Below are positions 5,109 through 62,087 of a stretch of 64,000 nt of DNA, piece after piece. Numbering within the stretch: position 1 is the first letter of the stretch; each line of letters begins with the position of its first letter. Source of the stretch: Evtepia sp. (GTDB lineage: Bacteria > Bacillota > Clostridia > Oscillospirales > Oscillospiraceae); assembly GCA_031553635.1 (NCBI GenBank), contig JAVBLH010000019.1, positions 2,639 through 66,638 on the forward strand. The letters run 5' to 3'. The notes beneath the pieces are model-generated. The model ran no database searches and had not been told where the DNA came from. It was given only the letters and a program-made list of their open reading frames with translations. The position numbers were made by a program, and so were the translations under genes.

Positions 5109-5477
5109 TTCCCCATGGGAATGGTGATTTGGTTCTACCATACTGATAGGTGTTTGGTTTTGTACCGCCCTGGCAGGACGGGGGAGCTTGTCTTTTCAGA
5201 CGGAACACCCTTTCTCACGTGAGAAAGGGTGGAAAGAACGCCAAGGGGGCGATTCCCCCTTGGAACCCCCTATGATGAAGTGGGTGCGAGGGCGCGCCTA
5301 CTGGGTGGGTCGTACGATTTGGTGTTACCATGCTCATGTAGGATAGGGTTTTTCTCTGGTTTCTTAAGAAAACGTGGTTTTCGGTAGGAATAAGCTGGTG
5401 GGCCGCAACCGAGGCTGTTTTTGGCTCGGGGCTTTTGTTGTGGTTCACTTTAGGTTGTTTGGGTGACTGAGGTAGTC

Positions 5478-5608
5478 ACCACCCCGCCCTATGGGCACCC
5501 CTCCACGGAGGGGAATTGTGTACTACTGTGAGGCAGCGGAAAACTCAAACCGCATCCCCCGTCCTAATTCCCCTCCTGTGGAGGGGTGGCACGAAGTGAC
5601 GGGGTGGT
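5478..5608 (+). repeat. F1 hairpin repeat, A-spacer-B
   Basis: Both arms intact; spacer GTGTACTACTG..CCCCCGTCCT. Confidence 0.92.
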
Positions 5609-5794
5609 TAACCGCCAGCGCAGCGCGCCCAGGGCTTGGTGTTTCCTCACCAAAGAACCACAGAAAAAAAGGACCCCGGGACAACCAAAGACAGTGGCAC
5701 TCACTGGGTGAAAACGGGCACGCCAAGACGCACCCAAGCCAAATCCCGCCAATTCGTACGGGTGTATCAAAAAAACCTGACCGTCTGCCATCAA

Positions 5795-5931
5795 AATTCC
5801 CCTCCGTGGAGGGGTGGCACGAAGTGACGGGGTGGTTTCGCCAGGTATGGAAACACGGTGACTACAACTGGGTGGTAATTTCAACGTTGAAACCACCCCG
5901 CCCTTTGGGCACCCCTCCACGGAGGGGAATT
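5795..5931. repeat. F1 back-to-back cassette (hairpin-B-55 nt-A-hairpin)
   Basis: 21-bp inverted repeats AATTCCCCTCCGTGGAGGGGT / ACCCCTCCACGGAGGGGAATT enclosing 97 bp (counted from hairpin ends). Confidence 0.92.
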
Positions 5932-6029
5932 GGACGGGGGCGTGAAACTACATCAGAAATGCCCAGCCTTGCACCAAACCAAAAAAGGGTTCAGAAGGAT
6001 GAAAACCTTCCGAACCCTTTTTCACATTG

Positions 6030-21491: not shown

Positions 21492-21708
21492 ACCACCCCG
21501 CCCTTTGGGCACCCCTCCACAGGAGGGGAATTAGGACGGGGGATGCGGGTTGGGGTGTGCGGCTAACTGACGTAGTCACCACCCCGCCCTTTGGGCACCC
21601 CTCCAAGGAGGGGAATTAGGACGGGGGATGCGGGTTGAGTTTTCCGCTGCCTTACAGTAGTACACAATTCCCCTCCTGCGGAGGGGTGGCACGCAGTGAC
21701 GGGGTGGT
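21492..21708 (+). repeat. F1 repeat with duplicated arm A (A-A-spacer-B, 86-bp period)
   Basis: Arm A at 21492 and 21578, arm B ends 21708. Confidence 0.92.
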
Positions 21709-21799
21709 TAACCGCCAACGCAGCGCGCCCGGGGCTTGGTGTTTCCTTGCCCAAGACCCACAGAAAAAATGCACAAGGCCCGGCCTTGCAAAGCCAACC

Positions 21800-23155
21800 C
21801 TACTTCTCCCTAATGGGTGCCCCATTCCTGGCCCCCACCACCAGGCCCATCACCCGGTAGGGGGCCTGACGGAGGGGCATCGCCTCTTGCAGTCCGGAGC
21901 GCATATCCTTCACGGAAACCATGCCCTTTGCCACCTCGTCCTCCCCCAAAATGGCGAGGAAGGGGACTTTCATCCGATCGGCATAGGCCATGCGCGCCTT
22001 AAATTTTTTCGCCTCGGTGTAGATCTGTGTCCGCAGCCCGGCCTTTCTCATCTCCGTGGCCAGTGAGATGGCAAGGGAGGTGTCCTCCGTCATGGGCAGC
22101 ACCAGCACATCGCAGGGGGCGGTGAGAAGGCCCTCGTTGAGATAGCCCTGCTCCCCCAACACGTAAAACAGCCGGGTGAGGCCGATGGAGATGCCCACCC
22201 CGGGCAGCTTCCTGTCGGTATAGTAGCCCGCCAAGTCGTCGTAGCGCCCGCCGGAGCAGATGGAGCCTATCTCCGGGTGGTCTGTCATCTCCGTTTCATA
22301 CACGGTCCCGGTGTAGTAATCCAAGCCCCGGGCGATGGTCAAATCCACGGCAAAGTGGCGCTCAGGCACCCCGAAGCCCGAGAGGGCGGCGGTGACAGCC
22401 CGCAGCTCCGCAAGGCCCAGGTCGAAGATTTCACTACGGCCTGTATATTTATCCAGGGCGCTCAGCACCTCTTCATTACTCCCGGTAATCTGAGTAAAGG
22501 CCAGGATGGTGTCGGCGGCTTCTGTCGAGACCCCCTCATCTGTCAGCAGGGTCTTCACTTTTTCCGGGCCTATCTTGTCCAGCTTGTCCACAATACGCAT
22601 AATATCCCCGGATTTTTCACCCAGGGACAGGGTCTCGTAAAACCCGGTTAAGATCTTGCGGTTATTCACCCGAATGCGAAAGCGTGAAAGGCCCAGGGCG
22701 GTGAAGGCCTGGTAGATGATGGCGGGAATCTCCGCCTCGTTCATCACGTCTAAGGACCCGTCGCCAATCACGTCGATATCCGCCTGGTAAAACTCCCGAA
22801 AGCGGCCCCGCTGGGCCCGCTCGCCGCGATAGACCTTGCCGATCTGGTAGCGGCGGAAGGGGAAGCTCAGGTCGTTATAGTGGAGGGCCACATATTTGGC
22901 CAGGGGCACGGTGAGGTCAAAGCGCAAAGAGAGGTCGGCGTCGCCCTTAGTAAATCTGTAAATCTGCTTTTCCGTCTCCCCGCCGCCCTTGGCAAGTAAA
23001 ACTTCCGAGGCCTCGATGAGGGGGGTGTCCAGGGGGGTGAAGCCGTAGAGGGCGTAGGTTTCCTTGAGAAGGTCCACCATACGGTCGAAGAGGACTTGGC
23101 TTGGGGGCAACAGTTCCATAAACCCGGAGAGGGTCCGGGGCTTTAAGCGTTCCAT
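21800..23155 (-). CDS. hisS: Histidine--tRNA ligase
   Basis: LRFDLTVPLA, YRGERAQRGRFREFYQ, IARGLDYYTG, GGRYD; start at MERLKP. Confidence 0.96.
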   Translation of the reverse strand: MERLKPRTLSGFMELLPPSQVLFDRMVDLLKETYALYGFTPLDTPLIEASEVLLAKGGGETEKQIYRFTKGDADLSLRFDLTVPLAKYVALHYNDLSFPFRRYQIGKVYRGERAQRGRFREFYQADIDVIGDGSLDVMNEAEIPAIIYQAFTALGLSRFRIRVNNRKILTGFYETLSLGEKSGDIMRIVDKLDKIGPEKVKTLLTDEGVSTEAADTILAFTQITGSNEEVLSALDKYTGRSEIFDLGLAELRAVTAALSGFGVPERHFAVDLTIARGLDYYTGTVYETEMTDHPEIGSICSGGRYDDLAGYYTDRKLPGVGISIGLTRLFYVLGEQGYLNEGLLTAPCDVLVLPMTEDTSLAISLATEMRKAGLRTQIYTEAKKFKARMAYADRMKVPFLAILGEDEVAKGMVSVKDMRSGLQEAMPLRQAPYRVMGLVVGARNGAPIREK

Positions 23156-28540: not shown

Positions 28541-28692
28541 TATCCAGGCAACGCAGCGCGCCCAGGGCTTGGTGTTTCTTTGCCCGAGAACCACAAAAAC
28601 AAAAGGACCACCCACCAAAGTGTAAGAAAGTGGGCGCTGGAAACAACGGGGCCCCACACGTTTAGGCGGAGCGAAGCGCAGCCTTTCACCCC

Positions 28693-39001: not shown

Positions 39002-39087
39002 AGCTTCGCAAGGCCGGGCCTTGTTCCGTTTTCACTGTGGTTCTCGGGCGAAGAAACACCAAGCCCTGGGCGCTGCGTTGGCGGTTA

Positions 39088-39410
39088 ACCACCCCGTCAC
39101 TGCGTGCCACCCCTCCGCAGGAGGGGAATTGTGTACTACTGTAAGGCAGCGGAAAACTCAACCCCCATCCCCCGGCCTAATTCCCCTCCAGTGGAGGGGT
39201 GCCCATAGGGCGGGGTGGTGACTACCTCAGTCACCCGCAAACCTCAACCCGCATCCCCGTCCTAATTCCCCTCCTGTGGAGGGGTGCCCAAAGGGCGGGG
39301 TGGTGACTACCTCAGTCACCCGCACACCCCAACCCCCATCCCCCGGCCTAATTCCCCTCCTGTGGAGGGGTGCCCAAAGGGCGGGGTGGTGACTACCTCA
39401 GTCACCCGCA
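39088..39410 (-). repeat. F1 array B-spacer-A-A-A (85-86-bp period)
   Basis: AATTCCCCTCC of arm A at 39179, 39264, 39350. Confidence 0.92.
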
Positions 39411-42887: not shown

Positions 42888-43376
42888 GAAATGAAAAAGT
42901 CGGAAAGCGATGCTTTCCGGCTTTTGTGTTTTTTGGTTGGGTTACCATCCTGGTGACGTGTTTTTTGGGTTCTACCATGCTGGTAGGCCAGTGTTCTCAT
43001 CATGCTTAGAAGCATGGAGAACTTTGTCCTCCCCGGACGGGGCGCTGTGGCACTTTGTCTTTCGGACAGAGTGTCCGGGGCTCTTGTCCTCGCCGTCAAA
43101 CTGTCCATTGGACAGTTTGATAAGATCAAGCGAAGCCACCTTGAAGAAGGGGCCACTTACCCAGCGGGGGCTCCATTTCTCACGCGAGAAATGGAGGAAA
43201 GAGCGCCAAGGGCCTCGGCCCCTGGACCCCGGGGTCATGACTCCCCATGGCGTGCCCGTTTTCACCCAGTGAGTGCCACTGTCTTTGGTGGTCCCGTGTT
43301 CCTTTTTTTCTGTGGTTCTTTGGCGAAGAAACACCAAGCCCTGGGCGCGCTGCGCTGGCCGGGGGCGTGGTGGGTG

Positions 43377-43586
43377 CTATGGGTTTTTGTTCTCCAGGCC
43401 GCAGATGTAGTCCATGGAGACCTTGTAGTATTTTGCCAGGACGATCACGCAGTCTAGGGGGATTCTTATTTTTCCGGTTTCGTAGTCGGAGTAGGTTTTT
43501 TGGCCTACGTGCAAAATGGCGGCGATTTGCGCTTGGGTTAAGTCCCTATCCTCTCGAAGTCCACGAATTCTTTCTAAATAGTGCAT
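43377..43586 (-). CDS. XRE-family HTH protein
   Basis: RIRGLREDRDLTQAQIAAILHVGQKTYSDYETG..IP. Confidence 0.85.
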   Translation of the reverse strand: MHYLERIRGLREDRDLTQAQIAAILHVGQKTYSDYETGKIRIPLDCVIVLAKYYKVSMDYICGLENKNP

Positions 43587-43678
43587 ATCATCACCTCTGC
43601 CCTATCATAACAGTAGTGTAATAACCACTATTGACTTGTAGGGGAATGCACTCTACAATGGTAAGGGGAGTGATGAAG

Positions 43679-43900
43679 ATGCCAGACTATAAAGAACTTT
43701 ACTTAACCCTTATGCGGGAAACAGAAAAAGCCATCCGCACCCTTACCGCCGCGCAGCAAACCTGCGAAGAGCTCTATTTGCAGCAGTCAGAACAGGAGGA
43801 AACCGTCCTCCCCTTCCCCACGTGCGGCCCTGAACGTCAAAGTTACGAAGCACCCAAGCCAAATCCCGCCACTTCGTACAGGTGTATCAAAAAAAACTGA
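43679..43900 (+). CDS. Small hypothetical helical protein (MPDYKELY...), divergent from the XRE gene
   Basis: AAGGGGAG RBS; TTGACT/TACAAT promoter-like motifs at 43631-43659. Confidence 0.65.
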   Translation: MPDYKELYLTLMRETEKAIRTLTAAQQTCEELYLQQSEQEETVLPFPTCGPERQSYEAPKPNPATSYRCIKKN

Positions 43901-43914
43901 CCGGCCGCCACCAA

Positions 43915-44051
43915 AATTCCCCTCCGTGGAGGGGTGCCCAAAGGGCGGGGTGGTTTCAACGTTGAGATTACCACCCAGTTGTTGTCACCGTGTTTCCATA
44001 CCTGGCAAAACCACCCCGTCACTTCGTGCCACCCCTCCACGGAGGGGAATT
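43915..44051. repeat. F1 back-to-back cassette, inverted relative to 5795-5931
   Basis: Internal 97 bp is the reverse complement of 5815-5911 (3 mismatches) with co-linear flanks. Confidence 0.92.
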
Positions 44052-44138
44052 GGACGGGGGGCGCGAAACTCTGACATGCCTCGCCTTGCACCAACCACCC
44101 CCCATGTGGCAAGCATACACAAAAAAGGGAGGAGGACA

Positions 44139-49521: not shown

Positions 49522-49908
49522 TCAACCCGAATCTTCACACAAAGCAGGGTGATTATACAGCATTTCCATCACAGTATTCAGGTCATTCAAAACATCCTGA
49601 GCCTGGATGTGAATCACTGTCAGACCCAGACCCTCTAAATAGGCGTTCCGCTCACTGTCATACTCCTGCTTCTCATCATGGGACTTGCCGTCAATTTCAA
49701 TGACAACGTGACAATTTAGGCAGTAGAAATCTACAATAAAGTTGCCAATAATTTTCTGCCTGTCAAAGTCGAATTTATTAAACTTTTTTCTATTAAGCTG
49801 CTTCCAAAGGAGTACTTCACATAAGTACCCTGCTTTTCGCAGCTCTTTCGCTCGCTCTCGCAGGGTTGGATTATATGGAAGTGCGTTATATGCTTGATAG
49901 TTTCGCAT
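49522..49908 (-). CDS. DUF559 / Vsr-like PD-(D/E)XK endonuclease
   Basis: RAKELRK..E..LW..L, FDRQKIIGNFIVDFYC, VIEIDGKSH, D.ER..YL; visibly AT-rich. Confidence 0.88.
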   Translation of the reverse strand: MRNYQAYNALPYNPTLRERAKELRKAGYLCEVLLWKQLNRKKFNKFDFDRQKIIGNFIVDFYCLNCHVVIEIDGKSHDEKQEYDSERNAYLEGLGLTVIHIQAQDVLNDLNTVMEMLYNHPALCEDSG

Positions 49909-53902: not shown

Positions 53903-54042
53903 CAACCGCCAACGCAGCGCGCCCAAGGCCTGGTGTTTCCTCACCCAAGAACCACAGAAAAAAAGGAACAGGTCACCACCAAAGACAGTGGCGCTCACTG
54001 ATGGTAAAAACCAAAATTGCTAAAAGATATAAAAACTATTAT

Positions 54043-56852: not shown

Positions 56853-57005
56853 GGTCTATTTGTGCTACCCAGCTTTTGGGAGATTTGGGTCTACCATCCT
56901 GGTAGGCATTTGGTTTTGATGCTTACAGGCAAAGGGCCTGCTCCTTTTTTCTGTGGTTCTCGGGCATAGAAACACCAAGCCCTGGGCGCACTGCGTTGGC
57001 GGTTA

Positions 57006-57224
57006 ACCACCCCGTCACTGCGTGCCACCCCTCCACAGGAGGGGAATTGTGTAATACTGTGAGGCAGCGGAAAACTCAAACCGCATCCCCCCGTCCTAAT
57101 TCCCCTCCTGTGGAGGGGTGCCCATAGGGCGGGGTGGTGACGAGGTCAGTTAACCGCCCACCCCAAACCCCCATCCCCCGTCCTAATTCCCCTCCATGGA
57201 GGGGTGCCCAAAGGGCGGGGTGGT
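57006..57224 (-). repeat. F1 array B-spacer-A-A (87-bp period)
   Basis: Arm A AATT at 57098 and 57185. Confidence 0.92.
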
Positions 57225-57391
57225 GACGACCTCAGTTAACCGCCCACCAAAAAAGAACCACAACACCCCCCGGCCTCTCAGGACGGCACAAGACCCGGCC
57301 TTGCACAGCCAAACATTCACTTGCAGCTAGCAAAAAACTCCAACAAAAAGCCCTCGGACACCGTCCGATTTAAATGGAGGCATTATCATCT

Positions 57392-61481: not shown

Positions 61482-61934
61482 ACCACCCCGTCACTGCGTG
61501 CCACCCCTCCACAGGAGGGGAATTGTGTACTCCTGTGAGGCAGAGGAACCCCACAAATCGCCTCCCCCGTCCTAATTCCCCTCCTGTGGAGGGGTGCCCA
61601 AAGGGCGGGGTGGTGACTACGCCAGTTAACCGTGTACTACTGTAGGGCAGAGGAAACCCCAAACCGCAACTCCCGTCCTAATTCCCCTCCTGTGGAGGGG
61701 TGTCCAAAGGGCGGGGTGGTGACTACGCCAGTTAACCGTGTACTCCTGTAAGACAGAGGAACCCCAAAAATCGCATCCACCGTCCTAATTCCCCTCCTGT
61801 GGAGGGGTGCCCAAAGGGCGGGGTGGTGACTACGTCAGTTAACCGTGTACTCCTGTGAGGCAGAGGAACCCCAAAAATCGCCTCCCCCGTCCTAATTCCC
61901 CTCCTGTGGAGGGGTGCCCAAAGGGCGGGGTGGT
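61482..61934 (-). repeat. F1 tandem array: one B arm + four spacer-A units (106-107-bp period)
   Basis: AATTCCCCTCCTGTGGAGGGG at 61574, 61680, 61787, 61894. Confidence 0.93.
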
Positions 61935-62087
61935 GACTACGCCAGTTAACCGCAAAACCCTATCCTACATGAGCATGTAAAAGCCCAAAACAGAAAAAAC
62001 CTCTATTTCAGCAATAGAGCCAAAATAAAATCCCACCGCCTGGGTGTAAAGGCGGTCTTTTGCCAACAGCAAAAGCGGAGCAAACTT

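Follow-up and report, generated by a model that had tools for sequence, protein, structure and literature searches.

The 64,000-nucleotide window analysed here, from contig JAVBLH010000019.1 (positions 2,639 to 66,638 of the forward strand) of the Evtepia sp. assembly GCA_031553635.1, contains two copies of a block of approximately 250 bp whose flanks run in the same direction and whose interiors run in opposite directions. The interior of each copy, at locus A and locus B, is bounded by two inverted copies of a structured repeat unit. The arrangement is best read, at roughly even odds (probability of about 0.5), as a historical, intramolecular inversion across 22-bp terminal inverted repeats that would have followed duplication of the block. 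The segments between inverted units have also flipped repeatedly elsewhere in this genome, and the same unit forms the ends of cassettes that carry genes for DUF559 proteins.

Two loci with opposite interiors

The homologous block and its parts are arranged as follows.

5730-5977 (locus A) and 43850-44094 (locus B), homology block, which starts with GCACCCAAGCC and ends with GCCTTGCACCAA
5730-5798 (+), left flank (L) of locus A, co-linear with 43850-43918; two copies in the genome
5795-5836 (+), unit X(+) of locus A, composed of AATT, hairpin 5799-5814, TG, mini-hairpin GCACGAAGTGA and CGGGGTGGT
5837-5891 (no strand), asymmetric core of locus A, 55 nt, reverse complement of 43955-44009, holding all three mismatches
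5892-5931 (-), unit Y(-) of locus A, composed of ACCACCCCG, mini-hairpin CCCTTTGGG, CA, hairpin 5912-5927 and AATT
5928-5977 (+), right flank (R) of locus A, co-linear with 44048-44094, beginning with GGACGGGGG
43850-43918 (+), left flank (L) of locus B, from direct reading and alignment
43915-43954 (+), unit Y(+) of locus B, from sequence reading
43955-44009 (no strand), core of locus B, 55 nt, inverted relative to locus A
44010-44051 (-), unit X(-) of locus B, from sequence reading
44048-44094 (+), right flank (R) of locus B, from alignment

An earlier note on this DNA had described co-linear flanks at 5728-5980 and approximately 43848-44095, and piecewise alignment finds both its coordinates and its description correct. 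The left flanks align co-linearly up to AAAATT over 68 nt with six mismatches. The right flanks (AATTGGACGGGGG ... GCCTTGCACCAA) align over approximately 52 nt at approximately 80% identity, with two indels and several mismatches; the GGACGGGGG that opens the right flank of locus A is the box found at one end of the family's spacers. From hairpin to hairpin, the interiors (5799-5927 and 43919-44047) are identical at 126 of 129 positions solely as reverse complements, and a direct alignment needs gaps to reach 71% identity. The 97 nt between the hairpins (5815-5911 and 43935-44031) had also been described as reverse complements with three mismatches, and the hairpins CCCCTCCGTGGAGGGG and CCCCTCCACGGAGGGG as exact reverse complements of each other. 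Both descriptions are borne out, with all three mismatches falling within the central 55-nt core. A repeat finder returns the two loci as an inverted repeat of 137 nt with 98% complementarity.

The zone that is perfect in both the direct and the inverted alignment measures 22 bp per side and consists of AATT, the hairpin and TG; at locus A these perfect terminal inverted repeats lie at 5795-5816 and 5910-5931. The crossover must lie within this AATT-CCCCTCCGTGGAGGGG-TG stretch, because the sequences fit both orientations only there.

The flanks L and R and the core are each present in exactly two copies in the 2.17-Mb, 41-contig assembly, and the window has 26 occurrences of the hairpin core versus 0.03 expected by chance. 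No further copy of the 55-nt core was found in the genome, in a genome-contig collection or in a metagenome-contig collection. A 254-nt query against relatives had no match among 24 congeners, and its matches in two further families of the order are at the level of the unit alone. Between the loci, the 74 nt of units show no difference, unlike the flanks (inner parts against flanks, each pooled, P = 7e-4). The divergence of the neutral core (3/55) is close to, and not different from, that of the left flank (6/68). An interior younger than its flanks was rejected on this ground, as the pooled result owes its significance to the conserved units together with the poor right flank.

The repeat unit and its two types

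The hairpin is not free-standing and forms the first element of a unit of approximately 42 nt that is composed of AATT, CCCCTCC-(2-4 nt)-GGAGGGG, TG, a mini-hairpin and CGGGGTGGT. The genome contains 98 units with two types of arm, X and Y, whose mini-hairpins read GCACGMAGTGA and CCCAWAGGG respectively. Forty doublets have their hairpins facing each other in the order Y(-), spacer, X(+), with spacers of 37-49 nt. The only arms-facing pairs in the genome are the two loci, which read X(+) 55 nt Y(-) and Y(+) 55 nt X(-). Every inverted doublet pairs X with Y, both the hairpins-facing (40/40) and the arms-facing (2/2).

A pattern scan of one genome per species identified more than 116 loci among the matches listed, and the counts that follow refer to these matches. 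They belong to Binatia, Cyanobacteria, Chlorobi, Fibrobacteres, Acidobacteria, Planctomycetes, Spirochaetes, Proteobacteria, Bacteroidota, Actinobacteria and Bacillota. In the mini-hairpin a single base pair is unconstrained, and it is of Watson-Crick type in 88 of 88 units (G-C 41, C-G 33, A-T 13, T-A 1). Of the 88 mini-hairpin loops, 81 are GNA, which is characteristic of DNA mini-hairpins of high stability such as d(GCGAAGC). The two types X and Y are likewise pan-bacterial, with a closing position of G.A in 31 units and C-G in 56. Arms-facing doublets with interiors of 17-105 nt are as frequent across phyla as hairpins-facing ones in this set. AATT or ATT stands 5' of the hairpin in nearly all units, in every phylum, solo units included. 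Membership in a known RNA family was discarded, since Rfam yields one chance microRNA match far below threshold.

Units are unevenly distributed in the assembly. The single 77-kb contig that contains the window (C20), and which also bears dnaA, dnaN, gyrB and gyrA, holds 57 of the 98, a density more than 30-fold above the rest of the 2.17-Mb assembly. A chimeric bin, in which this contig with its 58% of the units would come from an organism like G029 or G034 (two other genomes of the order with the unit family), was rejected on the basis of its GyrA, which is 71-81% identical to congeners versus 52-53% to G029 and G034. Three tandem arrays (39089-39391, 57007-57225 and 61483-61935) consist of one X followed by two to four direct Y units with periods of 85-86 or 106-107 bp, such that Y alone is amplified. 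A further repeat of approximately 110 nt, the tail (...CGCAGCGCGCCCAGGGCTTGGTGTTTC...CACAGAAAAAA), lies nearly always 3' of an X arm. The copy at 43248-43359 is without an X arm and is 96% complementary to the copy adjoining locus A.

5614-5725, 21716-21806, 28549-28617 and 53910-54000, copies of the tail repeat
39029-39084, 43248-43359 and 56945-57000, inverted copies of the tail repeat

Recurrent flips among the doublets

Flipping of the spacer is family-wide and recurrent in this genome. The spacers of the hairpins-facing doublets have distinguishable ends, one of which begins with GACGGGGG; in the 36 of 40 doublets that can be classified, this end adjoins Y in 18 and X in 18. Among the 28 long ("alpha") spacers, 17 of the pairs that are at least 88% identical have opposite states and 21 agree in state. 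An alpha spacer and its nearest neighbour agree in 18 of 28 cases versus 13.8 with shuffled labels (P = 0.11). Spacer orientation needs at least 8 changes on the maximum-likelihood spacer tree, with shuffled labels giving 9.3 +/- 1.3. One pair of canonical doublets displays the flip directly.

5514-5569 versus 21614-21669 (no strand), second flip pair in a canonical Y(-)/X(+) doublet, spacer with its AATTs, 54/56 identical solely as reverse complement

Around this second pair (5440-5700 and 21540-21800), the Y arm with approximately 15 nt upstream of it, the X arm and the tail of approximately 85 nt are all co-linear.

When the hairpin loops are read with AATT first, all are (T)GT-like and none is AC or ACA. 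Loop polarity thus stays with the arm in the spacer flips, which places their crossover in AATT or in the outer half of the stem. The earlier note had proposed an inversion whose crossover lies in the repeat palindrome. The change of orientation and a crossover within the 22 bp of AATT, hairpin and TG hold for the two loci; for the spacer flips the crossover does not fall just anywhere in the hairpin and is confined to the AATT or outer-stem side. Loop length was dismissed as a marker of the side with which a hairpin travels, being uncorrelated with arm type or spacer end, and loop polarity alone is informative.

Association with DUF559 genes

The genome encodes a single DUF559 protein, whose gene lies within the window.

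49522-49908 (-), DUF559 gene (Vsr-like PD-(D/E)xK), the sole one of the genome; PF04480 E = 2e-30, PDB 3HRL E = 1.5e-16

The gene sits between units, with a Y-type unit immediately upstream of its start, and the C-terminal NHPAL of its product is encoded by a degenerate arm. A homologue with 70% identity is found in G029 (G029:C9), which belongs to a different family of the same order (GyrA 52% identical), and is bracketed exactly by hairpin-arm(+) and arm(-)-hairpin. When metagenome loci are examined from the protein outwards, a unit lies within approximately 100 bp of the gene at 9/9 loci whose DUF559 protein is at least 55% identical, most of them as an arms-facing bracket, and beside the gene at 0/7 loci in the range of 35-48% identity. 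From the unit outwards, a DUF559 homologue is present within 250 bp at 4/80 loci of other phyla among the matches listed. The C-terminal NHPAL is encoded by the arm AACCACCCCGCCCT at several DUF559 loci. The link between DUF559 and the unit is a strong genomic association, and a catalytic role of the protein in it is putative. No report tying DUF559 to hairpin or triplex repeats was found in the literature; DUF559 genes are 14-fold enriched among predicted targets of programmed inversion, a figure given without comment (Milman et al. 2023, PMC9881135).

The flipped segment has the terminal topology of a DUF559 cassette, namely hairpin - arm(+) ... arm(-) - hairpin with the hairpins outermost. 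By this topology the segment counts as a cassette in miniature that has no gene, and it may descend from a gene-bearing one. The 55-nt core has no match to any of the fetched DUF559 loci, and its reading frame is closed just before the arm.

Several further arrangements of DUF559 genes and repeats were observed. The resident gene is AT-rich relative to the genome (49489-49560 and 49946-49985); its 3' end carries AT-degraded arms of both types, AATCACCCTGCTTTG, which encodes NHPAL, and then GAATCATCCTTTTACTTCGCGCC, and the hairpin is replaced by another repeat module. In E. coli K-12 (NC_000913.3, 1351159-1351479), the DUF559 gene ycjD ends in a BoxC-like hairpin, CCCTCGCTC-TTTC-AGGGAGAGGG, the loop of which contains the stop codon. 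A 23-nt piece of the 3' end of ycjD is duplicated approximately 110 bp downstream, and TMECO no. 9 is located 170 bp downstream. A Pseudomonadales metagenome-assembled genome (OZ242051.1, locus L083, 1859-7999) encodes a type I restriction-modification operon in the order hsdM - DUF559 - hsdS - hsdR. Within this hsdS, unit doublets are read through in frame and bracket segments of approximately 600-715 bp that resemble its two target-recognition domains. On two metagenome contigs (L161 and L166, approximately 1370-1900), a DNA-methylase-like gene with the motif ...LDYIY..LHSP.YR.KY.EFLK.DFPRVP is interrupted at one and the same site by a full hairpin - arm - DUF559 - arm - hairpin cassette; the two DUF559 proteins share 67% and 56% identity with that of the window. 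Finally, a DUF559 paralogue with 39% identity and one stop codon (L042, G029:C123, 1-570) lies inside a 52-nt inverted repeat of another triplex-type family, described below, with the gene in the spacer position between the hairpins.

Kinship with BoxC/PIT/TMECO repeats

The unit is a variant of the BoxC/PIT/TMECO intrastrand-triplex motif, distinct from canonical TMECO, and triplex formation is predicted for it. BoxC/PIT/TM repeats have been known since the 1990s and were linked to local genomic instability in 2015 (PMC4666352). Like them, the unit contains a pyrimidine block, a loop, a purine block and then, as third block, a G/T-rich mirror of the purine block (CCCCTCC / GGAGGGG / GGGGTGG). 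The Watson-Crick hairpin CCCCTCC-N2-4-GGAGGGG is present in 98/98 units of the genome and in units of many phyla. The 3' block GGGGTGG mirrors GGAGGGG in antiparallel fashion with T opposite A, in agreement with the purine-motif (class II) rule. The same rule is obeyed by two hairpin families that flank DUF559 paralogues, CTCCCTC / GAGGGAG / GAGGGAG and CCCTCTTT / AAAGAGGG / GGGTGTTT, the latter being the repeat around the paralogue with the stop codon; a fourth family, GGGGAAGG / GGATGAGG, conforms apart from one mismatch.

The organisation of the repeats is also shared. E. coli TMECO doublets always combine type A with type B (PMC4666352), which corresponds to the heterotypic inverted doublets of X and Y in the present genome. 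TMECO copy number is patchy between close relatives and TM loci are unusually rearranged by a mechanism left unclear (PMC4666352); the unit is likewise patchy in copy number among close relatives and associated with local rearrangement. PIT elements stall DNA polymerase in vitro, according to earlier work cited in PMC4666352.

The differences concern the stem, the second loop and the flips. Stems are 7 nt in the unit and 9 nt in TMECO. The second loop is composed of TG, a mini-hairpin of 11-13 nt and C, for a total of 13-16 nt including the covarying GNA-triloop mini-hairpin, whereas that of TMECO is 3 nt. It also exceeds the short loops used in published searches, which are 1-6 nt in the ITxF search (Holder et al. 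2015, PMC4666352) and 0-10 nt in Hoyne et al. 2000, as cited in PMC4666352. The ITxF search would miss the unit because of this long second loop. Orientation flips of segments between units are not described in PMC4666352.

Proposed history and alternative explanations

Since the core and the left flank have diverged to a similar degree, one duplication of the whole block plus one flip is the most parsimonious history. Each of the sequences at 5795-5931 and 43915-44051 is a gene-less, arms-facing X/Y doublet with the build, in miniature, of a hairpin - arm - DUF559 - arm - hairpin cassette. The block of approximately 250 bp formed by L, this mini-cassette and R would have been copied once within the chromosome, and the interior of one copy would have been turned, during or after the copying, by crossover between the 22-bp repeats. 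The element could fold into a very stable hairpin or cruciform; 5791-5935 as single-stranded DNA has a predicted fold of -50.7 kcal/mol (z = -8.6) in which the 22-bp repeats are the outer stem. A stalled or repairing strand may then switch template, or two breaks may rejoin, at the outer end of the stem, so that the stem would be kept and everything asymmetric inside it inverted. The same process would flip the inter-hairpin spacers of the canonical doublets repeatedly. An intramolecular event at the inverted repeats is favoured because it needs no dedicated recombinase (none is encoded on the contig) and keeps the stem, and because the crossover zone given by loop polarity and the block to polymerase at PIT elements both fit it.

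Several observations weigh against this history. Insertion of the mini-cassette in either orientation, or gene conversion from inverted copies, could yield the same end states, and the copying of the 250-bp block itself is left unexplained. The left flank of locus A (5740-5802) has no match of at least 99% among the Logan contigs of the one public run that holds the sequence, an invertebrate-gut metagenome of which 74% was read. In G029, the orientation of spacer and arm is coupled in all five sampled doublets, with no flips. Constructed flipped alleles of the E. coli TMECO doublets hrpB-mrcB, lldD-trmL and ygfF-gcvP were searched against 5,426 complete genomes and no flipped allele was found, the best full-length matches being 89.5-93.8%; hrpB-mrcB in its reference orientation is found in 2,764 records at 99% or higher. 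The lack of flipped alleles in E. coli indicates that doublets of this kind do not in general flip rapidly in situ. In the present genome flipping may depend on the high copy number, on the resident DUF559 gene or on randomisation during copying.

The strongest competitor involves no inversion in situ. A mini-cassette of 129 or 137 bp would have entered two pre-existing L-R copies at their AATT, by insertion or by excision followed by re-insertion, once in each orientation. Cassettes with the same termini carry DUF559 at unrelated sites in many phyla, even inside genes, and the consistent presence of a unit beside DUF559 genes of at least 55% identity (9/9) agrees with mobility. The AATT on both borders can be read as a 4-bp target duplication, and the identity of the 74 nt of units between loci with differing flanks (pooled P = 7e-4) speaks for it as well. 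Against these points, one site must have been hit twice, and no empty L-AATT-R site was found in the genome, in 40 relatives or in the genome and metagenome collections searched. The AATT or ATT belongs to the unit itself, as its presence beside solo units in all phyla indicates, and hence is not a target duplication. The neutral core is about as diverged as the left flank, and the second flip pair concerns a spacer between hairpins and not a cassette. Taken together, two independent insertions are considered unlikely.

Ectopic gene conversion would be able to operate wherever an oppositely oriented, quasi-palindromic copy aligns through its hairpin-AATT blocks, such that repair of a break pastes in a flipped spacer or interior; the break might arise at the triplex motif or by the DUF559 nuclease. 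Inverted donors are available, as the 28 alpha-type doublets are 76-98% identical and lie on both strands. The 18:18 randomisation of spacer ends is explained, as is the finding that the closest relative of a spacer is often of the other state, and the flip-free E. coli would be accounted for by its few doublets with unrelated spacers. The core of the two loci is, however, present in two copies only, which align far better co-linearly through L, interior and R than through two 22-bp blocks, and no boundaries of a conversion tract are visible. Conversion is accordingly regarded as quite improbable for this pair. A similarly low likelihood is given to a hitherto undescribed mobile-repeat system driven by the nuclease, in which DUF559 would recognise the folded unit and cut at AATT or the outer stem, and any segment between two inverted units would be cut out and joined again, or restored by repair from inverted copies, with either orientation as the outcome. 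If true, this nuclease chemistry would explain the insertion of cassettes, the gene-less miniatures, the tandem amplification, the spacer flips and the genomic instability of triplex motifs.

A programmed inverton, in which a recombinase turns the segment as a phase-variation switch, is very unlikely. Short inverted repeats around a segment of approximately 100 bp do fit the formal definition used by inverton finders, and genes for serine and tyrosine recombinases are present elsewhere in the genome. No such gene was found on C20 or beside either locus, and neither a promoter-like site nor a coding sequence was found inside the flipped segment. Both loci lie 3' of terminated or convergent genes (bipA; rnhA), and the specific flipped pair has no visible regulatory role or consequence. 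The dozens of dispersed doublets that are flipped alike are also unlike dedicated switches.

The earlier note had also recognised that reads might expose one locus as a mis-assembly. One 610-nt Logan contig independently joins the left flank of locus B to a Y-type arm (one of the four junctions), its terminal 31-mer reaching from a flank base specific to locus B into the beginning of the Y arm, and the left flank of locus B is covered exactly. Locus A, with its flank unmatched at 99% or above, is the less well supported locus, and the missing contig may reflect sampling. A perfect repeat of 22 bp is shorter than the k-mer lengths with which assemblers usually finish. Because of this short repeat, and because the cores differ at three positions, a false inversion from assembly is unlikely. 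That one locus was threaded the wrong way round through the repeat graph, as the repeat-dense region, the uncovered flank and the ending of Logan contigs at every hairpin might suggest, has very little probability, given that the differing cores were assembled from distinct reads, that an independent contig links flank B to the Y arm and that the flips across the family cannot all be artefacts.

The interpretation first placed on the two loci is thus partly supported, in that an inversion with its crossover in the palindromic terminus is indicated and is recurrent; enzyme-driven nicking and present-day activity are hypothetical.

Genes beside locus B

Beside locus B, a gene encoding an Xre-type helix-turn-helix protein (43377-43586, -) is divergent from a small open reading frame (43673-43899) that has a good promoter and ribosome-binding site. 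The small frame belongs to a multi-copy family in the genus, with up to five copies per genome, and continues into the left flank of locus B. The possibility that L is the 3' end of this small gene, with a truncated copy at locus A, was rejected, as the homology of the family ends at approximately residue 50, before L.

Comparison with other known systems

The REP/BIME/REPIN repeats and their RAYT proteins (Bertels and Rainey 2011, PMC3116915) resemble the present system in their extragenic palindromic inverted doublets that fold as long hairpins, their mosaic clusters of alternating orientation and the small nuclease-type gene flanked by its own repeats. Unlike that system, the recurrent cargo here is a DUF559 PD-(D/E)xK nuclease and not an HUH Y1 enzyme, and conservation of the unit sequence extends across phyla, in contrast to the lineage-specific REPs. 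Spacer flips are not reported in PMC3116915, and no literature report of them was found for REPINs or TM doublets. A RAYT protein was rejected as the driver, since no homologue of RAYT was found in the genome and units of other phyla show no excess of RAYT beside them. The search of the genome returned only a 19-aa IS200-like fragment at a contig end, and the RAYT-like proteins of G029 and G034 gave no tblastn match. These RAYT-like Y1 proteins number one in G029 (C57:5786-6277) and four in G034 (C9, C10, C2 and C1; loci L027-L031 in all). As the present genome is without RAYT and G034 is without a close DUF559 homologue, the pairing of repeat and enzyme is not one-to-one.

Inversions of inverted-repeat segments by template switching are known from quasipalindrome mutagenesis in E. 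coli and from the "minute inversions" of non-coding chloroplast DNA. The flips share with such hairpin-loop inversions a short segment within a perfect short inverted repeat, either orientation of that segment, an unchanged stem and the lack of a dedicated recombinase. They differ in that the stem is a conserved, possibly triplex-forming terminus of a mobile repeat, in their recurrence at least eight times in one genome, and in a mechanism that is here surmised from the sequences left behind. Vsr-like or EDxHD homing endonucleases, such as I-Bth0305I, are another instance of a small Vsr-fold nuclease gene acting as selfish DNA, a likeness that the DUF559 cassettes share. No intron or intein is involved here, the ends of the element are structured repeats, and an opposite orientation relative to homologous flanks would not be expected from homing by flank homology.

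Programmed invertons (fimS, hin and the hsdS shufflons; PMC9881135) also hold an invertible segment between inverted repeats. The present segments differ from them in having no neighbouring invertase and no switched promoter or coding sequence. As for the features of a miniature inverted-repeat transposable element with a target duplication, AATT does flank the cassette but precedes almost every unit in every phylum, and no empty site was found.

Significance of the flips

The long-loop repeat variant is new within a known family, and inversion at inverted repeats is itself a known kind of event; the combination of the two, their recurrence and the link with DUF559 make a useful case that is not categorically new. 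The flips provide a clean and countable form of rearrangement at triplex-motif repeats, in which the segment between two inverted units changes orientation. The crossover zone is narrowed to approximately 11 nt, comprising AATT and the outer half of the hairpin stem, and a single 2-Mb genome preserves at least eight events. The DUF559 cassettes end in a variant of the motif that has a long loop and a perfectly covarying GNA mini-hairpin and is conserved across bacterial phyla. Two questions are thereby made testable, namely the effect that triplex-motif repeats have on DNA and the role of DUF559 proteins.

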